Of a stretch of DNA of 64,000 nucleotides, positions 15,472-17,558 are shown piece by piece. Each line of letters opens with the position of its first letter. Position 1 is the stretch's first letter. The translations under genes and the position numbers were made by a program. This DNA is from Candidatus Liptonbacteria bacterium (GTDB lineage: Bacteria; Patescibacteriota; Minisyncoccia; UBA6257; 2-01-FULL-56-20), in assembly GCA_023244895.1 (NCBI GenBank), contig JAHFLL010000001.1, positions 268,009 to 332,008 on the forward strand, given 5' to 3'. A model generated the notes under the pieces. The model was not told where the DNA came from and ran no database searches. It was given only the letters and a program-made list of their open reading frames with translations.

Positions 15472-17009
15472 ATTAGAGGATTTGATCCTGGTCCAGGATG
15501 AACGCTGGCGGTGTGGATAAGGCATGCAAGTCGAGCGGAACTTACTTTGAAGAAGTTGAGATTATATCAAGGCGACGGATTTGTAAGTTTAGCGGCGAAC
15601 GAGTTAGTAACACCTTGGTACGTACCTTGAAGTCGGAGATAGTCCATCGAAAGGTGGGGTAATATCCGATGGTATCGAAAGATTAAAGTCGCAAGACGCT
15701 TCAAGATCGGCCTAGGTCCGATCAGCTAGTTGGTAAGGTAACGGCTTACCAAGGCTATGACCGGTAGGGGAGGTGAGAGCCTGACCCCCAACGACGAGAC
15801 TGAGACACGGCTCGTACTCCTACGGGAGGCAGCAGTCAAGAACATTCGACAATGGGCGAAAGCCTGATCGAGCGACACCGCGTGCAGGATGAAGGCCTTC
15901 GGGTCGTAAACTGCGGTAGTAAAATAACAATGTAAATGAGTGTTTTACGGAAAGAGGTGGGTAACTACGTGCCAGCACCAGCGGTAATACGTAGACCTCA
16001 AGCGTTATCCGGATTTATTGGGCGTAAAGAGTATGTAGGGGGCTCGGTGCGTCTCTGGTTAAATCCCACCGCCTAACGGTGGACATGCCAGAGATACGAT
16101 CGGGCTAGAGGGAGTTAGAGGTGTGCAGAACGCACGGTGTAGGGGTGAAATCCGTTGATATCGTGCGGAATACCAAAGGCGAAGGCAGCACACTGGGACT
16201 TTCCTGACCCTGAGATACGAAAGCGTGGGGAGCAAAAAGGATTAGATACCCTTGTAGTCCACGCCCTAAACAATGCCTGTTTGCTGTTTCGAGTATCGAC
16301 CCTCGGAGTGGCGGAGCTAACGCGTTAAACAGGCCGCCTGGGAAGTACGGCCGCAAGGCTAAAACTCAAAGGAATAGACGGGGACTCGCACAAGCGGTGG
16401 ATCATGTGGTTTAATTCGACTCTAAACGAGGAACCTTACCAGGGCTTGAAATTCTGAATGAAAGCTGCCAGAAACGGCGGCCCTCTCTCAAGGACATTTA
16501 GGACAGGTGCTGCACGGTTGTCGTCAGTTCGTGCCGTGAGGCGTTCCCTTAATTGGGGTAACGAACGCAACCCTTACCTGGTGTTATTTGTGTCACCAGG
16601 AACTGCCCCCGCTCAAGTTCATAATTCTATGAATTGTGGTTTTGAGCGGGGGAGGAAGGAGAGGATGACGTCAAATCAGCGTGGCCCTTTGATGCCCTGG
16701 GCTACACACATGATACAATGGTCGTGACAATGGGTTGCCAAATCGTAAGATGGAGCTAATCCCACCAAACACGGCCTCAGTTCGGATTGGGGGCTGCAAC
16801 TCGCCCCCATGAAGCCGGAATCGCTAGTAATCGCGGATCAGCTATGCCGCGGTGAATACGTTCTCGAGTCCTGTACTCACTGCCCGTCAAGCCAGGGGAG
16901 CTGGGAGGAGGTAAAGATCCACATTTGTGGGGCTAGCCTCAGCTCGGTGACATGGGCTAAGTCGTAACAAGGCACGCGTAGCGGAAGCTGTGCGTGGACC
17001 AATTAAATT
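15472..17009 (+). rRNA. rrs: 16S ribosomal RNA, with no large insertions
   Basis: 5' end AGAGGATTTGATCCTGGTCCAGGATGAACGCTGGCGG, internal GTGCCAGCACCAGCGGTAATAC, then AAGTCGTAACAAGG. The 3' tail reads GTGGACCAATTAAATT where GGATCACCTCCTTA is expected, so the exact 3' end is uncertain. Confidence 0.9.
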
Positions 17010-17111
17010 GTCGAATATTTTTCTTTTGAAAAATATGGTGCGTAAGCATTTCAGTCATTTGGGCAGCTAGAAAACTCTGATTTAAAAAGGGACCGATTGG
17101 TCCGTGGAAAG

Positions 17112-17137
17112 TAGGCCTGGTCAAAGGCCTATTTTCT
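17112..17137 (+). terminator. Terminator after 16S
   Basis: TAGGCC-TGGTCAAA-GGCCTA followed by TTTTCT. Confidence 0.45.
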
Positions 17138-17156
17138 ATGCTACAATCAATAAACT

Positions 17157-17558
17157 ATGGAACCAGCCAAAGTGTTAATTATTGAAGACGACCACTTCTT
17201 ATCCTCTATTTTAAAGAGCAAATTAGAGAAGGAGGGGTTTGAGGTTCACCAGGCTTTTGATGGAGATGAGGGCTTGGCTATACTCCAGACTTTCAAGCCG
17301 AATCTGATTCTGCTGGATTTGATTATGCCGAAATTGTCCGGCTTTGATGTTTTGCAGCAAGTTTCGGTTGACCCGGAGCTTAGTCAGATACCAATAATGG
17401 TCGCGTCCAACTTAGGGCAGGACAGCGACATCCAGAAGGCAAAATCACTGGGCGCGATAGATTATTACGTGAAAGTGCGCACCTCTATTGACGAACTGGC
17501 TCAATTAGTGAAAAATGTGATAAACCAAAACGCAGCCAGTCAACCGAATCAAACTTAA
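17157..17558 (+). CDS. Single-domain response regulator (CheY-like receiver)
   Basis: Motifs KVLIIEDD, LLDLIMPKLSG and a conserved K. A -10 TACAAT sits 9 nt before the ATG. Confidence 0.75.
   Translation: MEPAKVLIIEDDHFLSSILKSKLEKEGFEVHQAFDGDEGLAILQTFKPNLILLDLIMPKLSGFDVLQQVSVDPELSQIPIMVASNLGQDSDIQKAKSLGAIDYYVKVRTSIDELAQLVKNVINQNAASQPNQT

Follow-up and report, generated by a model that had tools for sequence, protein, structure and literature searches.

The 64,000-nucleotide stretch of Candidatus Liptonbacteria DNA analyzed here (the window) carries a full-length 16S ribosomal RNA (rRNA) gene whose 3' tail lacks the CCUCC anti-Shine-Dalgarno (anti-SD) sequence. The 23S gene is not next to it, the rRNA genes being unlinked, and the next gene encodes a response regulator starting at position 17157. 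The closest 16S sequences among the GTDB species representatives are 88 to 89% identical and come from metagenome-assembled genomes (MAGs) titled Minisyncoccia, Paceibacterota, or Parcubacteria group. These best matches, together with a shared variant of positions 1392 to 1408 (GTACTCACTGCCCGTCA), affiliate the gene with the Parcubacteria/Paceibacteria.

The 16S rRNA gene and its 3' tail

Alignment to the Rfam model RF00177, the check proposed with the original prediction, showed that the gene is full length and confirmed the tail; it also revealed extra segments within the gene. In a focused alignment of the 3' part, the universally conserved AAGUCGUAACAAGG is followed by an intact helix 45 and then by a tail in which AUUAA (17002 to 17006) is aligned to the anti-SD bases CCUCC of the model, just as the original prediction had read it. 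No CCTCC, CTCCT, or CCTC occurs within 200 nt 3' of helix 45, a distance that takes in the 147-nt spacer and the start of the response-regulator gene; a CCUCC slightly further 3', which would have overturned the prediction, is therefore not present there. The leader and trailer of the gene form a duplex of −58.4 kcal/mol, compared with −42.5 ± 4.0 kcal/mol for shuffled trailers, and an RNase III gene lies within the window (23693 to 24367). The presence of this processing stem on both sides of the gene shows an intact 3' flank, with no CCUCC from the tail to the stem.

Two other parts of the 16S gene depart from the canonical sequence. The decoding-center strand (16873 to 16889) carries A1396U and C1400U, reading GTACTCACTGCCCGTCA where the canonical sequence is GTACACACCGCCCGTCA, a variant found in 94 or more 16S genes of Patescibacteria. 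The 530-loop/515F region (15971 to 15992) reads GTGCCAGCACCAGCGGTAATAC instead of ...CAGCAGCCGCGG....

The 16S genes of relatives were retrieved with the 17-nt decoding-region stretch GTACTCACTGCCCGTCA, using one genome per GTDB species. This motif, which does not depend on the tail, is located some 90 nt upstream of GTCGTAACAAGG and some 125 nt upstream of the tail itself. The scan returned 119 loci, almost all from Patescibacteria, Paceibacterota, or Parcubacteria MAGs, and 94 of these are genuine 16S 3' ends. By our classification of the tails, 75 of the 94 are without CCUCC or CCUCA and 19 have one of them. The tail of the window, here called type A, is found at 26 loci (the window and 25 relatives, all independent assemblies) with the consensus GGAUCAAUUAAACU, or GGAxCAAUUAAAC. 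It is at least 90% conserved over approximately 12 nt past helix 45, after which the sequences become near-random. Because conservation stops after about 12 to 13 nt, the type-A tail has canonical length and is constrained. CCTCC appears within 200 nt downstream at only 3 of 76 anti-SD-less loci.

A 16S 3' end that is truncated, chimeric, or misassembled, or an anti-SD shifted slightly in the 3' direction, as by an insertion, would also account for the missing motif. The 16S genes of the candidate phyla radiation (CPR) often contain insertions, and the window gene has its extra segments. In addition, one Nomurabacteria-like sister lineage among the relatives (B1) keeps Shine-Dalgarno (SD) sequences without a visible anti-SD and has a hairpin with the loop AUCCUUUAA about 90 nt downstream, which makes displaced elements conceivable in principle. 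Such an artifact would nevertheless have to recur in 25 further independent assemblies with the same tail and leave conservation ending at the canonical tail length. It would also have to spare the processing stem and the motif-free flank, and to coincide with the lack of an SD signal in the very genes that would need an anti-SD. We give it next to no probability, and a displaced anti-SD was rejected for the window on the basis of the downstream scan and the processing stem. The absence of the anti-SD is real and clade-wide, as is the conservation of the tail that replaces it, and truncation, chimerism, and slight displacement are excluded for the window gene.

Shine-Dalgarno motifs and −10 boxes before start codons

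Genes were called as nonoverlapping open reading frames (ORFs) of at least 100 amino acids, with the first ATG as the start. Of 64 window genes, 11% have GGAG, GAGG, or AGGA at −18 to −4, compared with 9% for a control window. The duplex energy of the −20 to −1 regions with the canonical anti-SD is −2.72 kcal/mol, identical to that of their own shuffles (−2.72 kcal/mol), and in the type-A relatives it is −3.24 versus −3.11 kcal/mol. SD 5-mers at spacers of 4 to 10 nt precede 3% of 216 type-A genes (window included), which equals background, and their positional profile is flat. By this flat profile and the match between duplex energies and shuffles, the leadered and operon-internal genes of type-A genomes show no sign of using SD-type ribosome-binding sites. 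CPR loci that retain CCUCC or CCUCA (e.g., L001, L007, L016-L018, L026, and L036) were rejected as a positive control, as SD use is at background there too, and lineage B1 was used instead. In B1, textbook AAGGAGG motifs form a peak at spacers of 5 to 9 nt in 17% of genes versus 0 in controls, with an energy excess at a P value of 0.001, despite the absence of a visible anti-SD. The method does detect SD use, since B1 shows both a clear SD peak and an energy excess. The eight genes for which the lack of a GGAGG-like motif had originally been reported are indeed all without an SD, and Pfam agrees with the six identities that had been named by function (DHHA1, class II aminoacyl-tRNA synthetase, Trp-repressor/YerC-like, response regulator, S2, and PAP2).

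Lineage B1 (L003, L006, L029, L061, L064, L082, L086, L094, L096, L099, and L111) has the tail GGAUUAAUUCAAUGUGAAA, with no CCUCC within 200 nt. The hairpin about 90 nt downstream, with the loop AUCCUUUAA or AUCCAUAA, was found at L003, L029, L061, L064, L082, L087, L096, L099, and L111; the tail of L087 is AAUUUGAA, a variant of the B1 tail.

Hexamers resembling a −10 box are concentrated a short distance before the start codons. With a looser criterion, 13 are found at spacers of 6 to 7 nt in the window versus 3.0 expected (P = 1.4e-5), and 78 versus 30 in the anti-SD-less relatives (P = 2.2e-13). Strict TANAAT occurs three times at each of spacers 6 and 7 in the window (background of about 0.4 per position) and 13 and 8 times, respectively, in the anti-SD-less relatives (background of about 2.6). 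A −10 box at the leaderless offset is present in 17 to 24% of operon-leading genes, compared with 7 to 9% at control offsets. The extended −10 motif TGNTANAAT occurs 19 times in the window versus 8.9 ± 3.2 times in shuffles; seven of these boxes lie 6 to 9 nt before an ATG that opens an ORF of 65 to 346 amino acids, and the arrangement TGCTANAAT-N6-ATG is found twice, with 0.04 expected. For the response regulator, RNase HII, M50 protease, and Ser-hydrolase genes, the start codons are anchored by Pfam domain boundaries, and these ATGs are the first start codons after an in-frame stop.

In total, about 14 of the approximately 77 window ORFs, or by our estimate about 14 of some 50 operon-leading genes, have leaderless or near-leaderless geometry (Table 1). 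The five pairs of −10 box and ATG quoted in the original prediction (2342, 17157, 54748, 57845, and 62065) are all present with the spacers given there. Its statement that many genes have such a box holds in that the number is above chance, but it does not extend to most genes. Likewise, the leaderless or near-leaderless mRNAs it proposed are supported by boxes 6 to 8 nt from the ATG, but the remaining genes are SD-less and either leadered or coupled within operons.

The placement of the −10 boxes is not random and is phylogenetically conserved. The response regulator following the 16S gene keeps its synteny in about 35 relatives, and nearly all of these have a TGnTAnAAT or TATACT box 6 to 13 nt from the ATG while the flanks have diverged; in the window, the TACAAT box stands 9 nt before the ATG. 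Among N-terminally aligned orthologues, a strong −10 box at 4 to 14 nt precedes 12 of 17 response regulators but only 1 of 13 copies of the following, operon-internal gene for bL19. Since exactly 7 nt also separate a box of the same kind from the 5' end of the RNase P RNA, the distance from −10 to transcription start site (TSS) is calibrated within the genome. Taken together, sequence geometry and comparative footprinting support a leaderless class of mRNAs with TSSs predicted at or near the AUG.

The RNase P RNA itself (3727 to 4082, minus strand) scores only 103 bits against a gathering threshold of 100 and, compared with the class A model, has large deletions. With its 5' end 7 nt after TGATATAAT, it is probably made without 5' processing.

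Table 1. Coordinates of the 16S gene, its flanking elements, genes with predicted leaderless or near-leaderless starts, and features for contrast (bL19, rpsB) or calibration (RNase P RNA)
Feature	Position	Strand	Sequence or arrangement	Basis
16S rRNA gene, full length	15470-17009	+		Rfam RF00177, 1366 bits, model 1-1533, end to end
Helix 45, intact	16973-16996	+	CACGCGUAGC-GGAA-GCUGUGCGUG	Alignment, 10/10 pairs standard
16S 3' tail (13 nt)	16997-17009	+	GACCAAUUAAAUU in place of GAUCACCUCCUUU (model positions 1521-1533)	RF00177 alignment
Pre-16S processing stem, 5' leader arm	15310-15328	+	GAGUUUUCUAGUUGUCCCA	Duplex fold, leader vs. trailer
Pre-16S processing stem, 3' trailer arm	17060-17077	+	UGGGCAGCUAGAAAACUC	Duplex fold, leader vs. 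trailer
Response-regulator/bL19 promoter	17118-17147	+	TGGTCA-18-TACAAT; extended −10 TGCTACAAT at 17139-17147	Promoter scan
Response regulator, near-leaderless	17157-17558	+	Predicted 5' untranslated region of ~2-3 nt	Pfam Response_reg from residue 6; ATG first after stop
bL19, operon-internal	17563-17871	+	No SD, no −10; 4 nt past upstream stop	Pfam
rpsB upstream region	31394-31440	+	TATACT ~38 nt upstream, hairpin GCCCCUAAGGGGC, AAUAAAA-AUG at 31438	Pfam; promoter as read by us
RNase P RNA, 5' end (RNA 3727-4082)	4082-4098	-	TGATATAAT, then 7 nt, then 5' end	Rfam, box scan
Ser-hydrolase gene 36213-36794	36198-36215	+	TGCTACAAT-N6-ATG	Box scan; Pfam profile position 2 at residue 6
ORF 54748-55029	54733-54750	+	TGCTATAAT-N6-ATG	Box scan
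M50 protease gene 46082-47122	46066-46084	+	TGCTATAAT-N7-ATG	Pfam profile position 3 at residue 8
ORF 30325-30846	30309-30327	+	TGCTATAAT-N7-ATG	Box scan
ORF 62065-62262	62050-62067	+	TGGTATAAT-N6-ATG	Box scan
PAP2 gene 57845-58492	57832-57847	+	TATAAT-N7-ATG	Box scan, Pfam
RNase HII gene 22250-22894	22238-22252	+	TAGAAT-N6-ATG	Pfam profile position 1 at residue 5
DHHA1 gene 2342-3181	2330-2344	+	CATAAT-N6-ATG	Hexamer offset analysis, Pfam
MgtC-like gene, start 4591	4589-4609	-	TGCTATAAT-N9-ATG	Box scan
NUDIX gene 7231-7941	7939-7953	-	TAAAAT-N6-ATG with TAGACA −35	Operon-leading gene analysis, Pfam
M17 aminopeptidase gene 51166-52545	52543-52580	-	TTGACC-17-TATGTT-N6-ATG	Promoter scan, Pfam

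The conserved tail could in principle serve as a new anti-SD, with CAAUUAAA pairing to AU-rich motifs resembling UUUAAUUG and the TATAAT-like hexamers acting in the manner of ribosome-binding sites and not as promoters. The conservation of the tail fits this idea, as do the greater frequency of TTAAT, ATTAA, and AATTAA at −20 to −1 than at −60 to −41, the −6 to −9 kcal/mol that a full duplex of 9 to 11 nt would be worth, and the overlap of the hexamer-ATG spacing of 6 to 9 nt with SD spacing. However, tail and mRNA do not covary: the k-mers complementary to the tail (from UUUAAUUG), which are mildly enriched near starts, are equally or more enriched in genomes that retain CCUCC, and in B-type genomes the complement of the own tail is not enriched. 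The duplex energies with the own tail are those of shuffles as well (−1.75 versus −1.70 kcal/mol in the window and −1.66 versus −1.58 kcal/mol in the relatives), so the −20 to −1 computation suggested with the original prediction yields no excess with either the canonical anti-SD or the new tail. The hexamers themselves look like promoter elements, in that they carry the typical TG extension, stand at TSS distance before the RNase P RNA, and are largely missing before operon-internal genes, as the bL19 orthologues illustrate in a small sample. Pairing with the new tail was rejected for its lack of covariation and energy excess, and we regard it as very unlikely. On these comparisons, the conserved AU-rich tail GGAxCAAUUAAAC appears to be under constraint for a reason other than mRNA pairing.

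Many genes of the window are not of the leaderless type. The predicted rpsB leader is about 30 nt long and SD-less, and other genes are SD-less with predicted leaders of roughly 10 to 40 nt or are tightly coupled in operons. Operon-internal starts lie between −8 and +6 nt from the preceding stop codon at 13 of 18 window junctions and 36 of 50 type-A junctions, which suggests that these genes are translated by termination-reinitiation coupling. A makes up 40 to 50% of positions −1 to −15 (AATAA, 62 versus 23), although TAA stops and AT-rich spacers confound the positional profile, which is weak.

These features invite a reading in which initiation is SD-free but leadered throughout: promoters would lie further upstream, the hexamers near the ATG would be by-products of AT richness, and A-rich unstructured leaders would act as in Bacteroidetes. 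The A enrichment is in line with this, and for many leading genes, such as 34971, 12582, 54649 (minus strand), and rpsB, the best −10 box is at 14 to 43 nt. An AT-rich by-product should give a broad plateau, whereas the boxes form a sharp peak at 6 to 7 nt that is carried by strict TANAAT and TGNTANAAT and not just by loose matches, and the geometry is kept in orthologues despite their diverged flanks. Upstream of the response regulator, moreover, the gap between the 16S processing stem, which ends at about 17085, and the −10 box at 17139 is only about 45 nt and holds a hairpin. An exclusively leadered organization is accordingly unlikely.

Neighboring genes and elements

The response regulator, which stands alone, and bL19 form a two-gene operon (17157 to 17871) directly 3' of the 16S gene. 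The operon is kept in at least 13 relatives and is a strange combination for a ribosomal protein. In nine relatives (L056, L067, L100, L042, L047, L098, L080, L002, and L112), a conserved 22-nt element, GGGACAACTAAAAAGCTCTTTG, lies past the 16S trailer and directly upstream of the response-regulator −10 box; the window does not have it. A −35/UP element, an operator, and a processing signal are candidate roles for it.

The +1 frameshift site of prfB is normally stimulated by an internal SD. A release-factor gene at 10515 to 11237 (minus strand) was considered as a frameshifted RF2, which would have served as a test of anti-SD function, and was rejected as it is RF1-type without domain 1. It has the PKT tripeptide and GGQ and begins at domain 2 (MNKIILEIRAGAGGDEAA; PCRF profile 100 to 194 plus the RF-1 domain), and domain 1 is not encoded in any upstream frame. 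Orthologues of 239 to 246 amino acids with the same N terminus are present in the window and eight relatives (L042, L118, L002, L100, L056, L102, L015, and L110). Because they share length and N terminus, several with only 28 to 54 nt upstream, the truncation is a lineage trait. A literature search found no mention of an RF1 without domain 1.

A perfect sigma-70 promoter, TTGACA-17-TGCTATAAT (11868 to 11894, plus strand), points into a stretch of about 620 nt (11901 to 12520) that is approximately 60% GC, free of ORFs, and closed by a terminator-like hairpin (about 12470 to 12515). The stretch folds at −278.8 kcal/mol versus −243.8 ± 6.7 kcal/mol for shuffles (z = −5.2). No Rfam family matches the GC-rich 11.2- to 12.6-kb region at an E value of ≤1, and 11901 to 12520 has no match in the 119 related loci. 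It is a candidate for an undescribed structured RNA transcribed from the plus strand.

Probable initiation without Shine-Dalgarno pairing and its relation to known systems

We consider it likely that this Parcubacteria genome (Paceibacteria, CPR/Patescibacteria) has ribosomes without an anti-SD and mRNAs without SD pairing and that it uses three SD-independent routes of initiation. In the first, sigma-70-type promoters, mostly with an extended −10 box (TGnTAnAAT) 6 to 9 nt before the ATG, would start transcription at the AUG or a few nucleotides away, and the resulting leaderless or near-leaderless mRNAs would be bound directly at their 5'-terminal start codon. In the second, operon-internal genes would be reached through termination-reinitiation coupling. 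In the third, the remaining leadered genes would depend on the A-rich, GC-poor sequence before the AUG. The absence of SD-anti-SD pairing put forward by the original prediction is supported at the sequence and comparative levels, with no anti-SD, no SD signal, and a clade-wide distribution.

Several observations weigh against this interpretation. Start codons were called heuristically, as the first ATG of each ORF, and full −35/−10 promoters are not enriched (14 versus 23.8 in shuffles). The classical two-hexamer scan was therefore rejected as support, leaving the −10 and TG elements as the only promoter signal. Where the spacer is 9 to 13 nt, as for the response regulator, the predicted leader is 2 to 6 nt and not zero. 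A few window genes have textbook SDs (9383 and 14726 on the minus strand, with about 0.5 such matches expected by chance), and a real-looking SD is found also at 56950. The first two belong to ORFs 9383 to 10396 (plus strand) and 14475 to 14726 (minus strand), with canonical-spacing SDs agagGGAGGacgatATG and cagcAGGAGGcccagATG, respectively; neither ORF has a Pfam match, both lie in the higher-GC stretch at 9 to 15 kb, and their SDs could be due to chance or to recent acquisition of the genes. A second 16S copy with an anti-SD could lie elsewhere in the genome, beyond the 64-kb window. Finally, CPR relatives that retain CCUCC have the same −10 peak at 6 to 7 nt and SD use at background (3 to 5% of genes in a small sample of 94, with duplex energies equal to shuffles). 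Because these relatives behave alike, leaderless and SD-free initiation has no specific connection to anti-SD loss; SD disuse and leaderless initiation are probably older than that loss.

The loss itself has precedents. CCUCCU is missing from the 16S 3' end in a Parcubacteria subgroup that overlaps the lineages lacking uL1, and the retrieved passages of that study report CCUCCU in only 48% of Parcubacteria and infer that no SD helices are made (Tsurumaki et al. 2022, RNA 28:1041, PMC9297842). According to the same passages, bS21 is often absent in uL1-lacking lineages, and ribosomal-protein loss in the CPR resembles that of mitoribosomes (PMC9297842). The window shares with that subgroup both its phylogenetic neighborhood and the missing CCUCCU. 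The original prediction was thus right to call the arrangement unusual for bacteria, but anti-SD loss in a Parcubacteria subgroup had already been published (PMC9297842). The mRNA side is not described in the passages retrieved from that paper, whereas the tail sequence, its conservation, the absence of SDs, and the leaderless promoter geometry are documented here. None of rplA, rpsU, and rpsA is among the approximately 60 annotated proteins of the window, a span of 64 kb from which genome-wide absence does not follow.

In mammalian mitochondria, the 12S rRNA has no anti-SD and the mRNAs are leaderless. The likeness, an anti-SD-less ribosome that meets 5'-terminal start codons, is one of functional analogy only, and unlike in mitochondria, most window genes are outside the leaderless class and belong to polycistronic operons. 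Bacteroidetes keep CCUCC in their 16S rRNA, where it is sequestered on the ribosome, whereas the window lineage no longer has the motif and shows a leaderless class in addition. The sampled CPR relatives with CCUCC resemble Bacteroidetes, in that the anti-SD is kept and SD use is at background. What the window shares with Bacteroidetes-type group B of GeneMarkS-2, as described in the retrieved passages, is genes without SDs and, with a weak positional profile, A richness ahead of the start codon (Lomsadze et al. 2018, PMC6028130). The same program calls genes leaderless from a Pribnow box 6 to 8 nt from the first genes of operons in its group C (Actinobacteria and Deinococcus-Thermus), the geometry also seen in the window, where about 14 of 50 genes is at the low end of the 25 to 50% given for that group (PMC6028130). 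In group C, however, the other genes use SD sites and the 16S rRNA keeps its anti-SD, while the window has neither; the CPR does not appear in the retrieved passages (PMC6028130).

Loss of CCUCCU is also recurrent in tiny and reduced genomes, where it is associated with ribosomal-protein loss (Nikolaeva et al. 2021, PMC7782861, in whose retrieved passages the earlier studies of Lim et al. 2012 and Amin et al. 2018 are cited). Those examples mostly concern intracellular symbionts whose tails are degenerating, whereas the replacement tail described here is conserved in a broad environmental clade. A literature search combining leaderless with Parcubacteria, Patescibacteria, or CPR found no relevant paper. 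With anti-SD loss already known for Parcubacteria, the present additions are modest: the conserved replacement tail, the rejection of an alternative pairing, and the leaderless or near-leaderless promoter class.

A bolder joint reading, which we consider unlikely, would make the tail GGAxCAAUUAAAC, instead of a decayed remnant, a working part of a distinct, mitochondria-like initiation mode in a large part of the Parcubacteria, with 5'-terminal AUGs, reinitiation, and A-rich leaders fully replacing the SD. Under the same reading, lineage B1, with its tail GGAUUAAUUCAAUGUGAAA, would not use the canonical 16S tail but some other element to read its AAGGAGG SDs, a candidate being the conserved hairpin loop AUCCUUUAA about 90 nt downstream.

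The leaderless geometry leads to concrete predictions, by gene and coordinate, that are open to metatranscriptome tests. In genomes without an anti-SD, gene callers built on SD models will misplace starts, and tools based on the 16S 3' end will misbehave. SD-anti-SD pairing is the textbook mechanism of start-site selection, and a large environmental radiation that has no anti-SD yet keeps a conserved tail is a natural experiment on how start codons are found.

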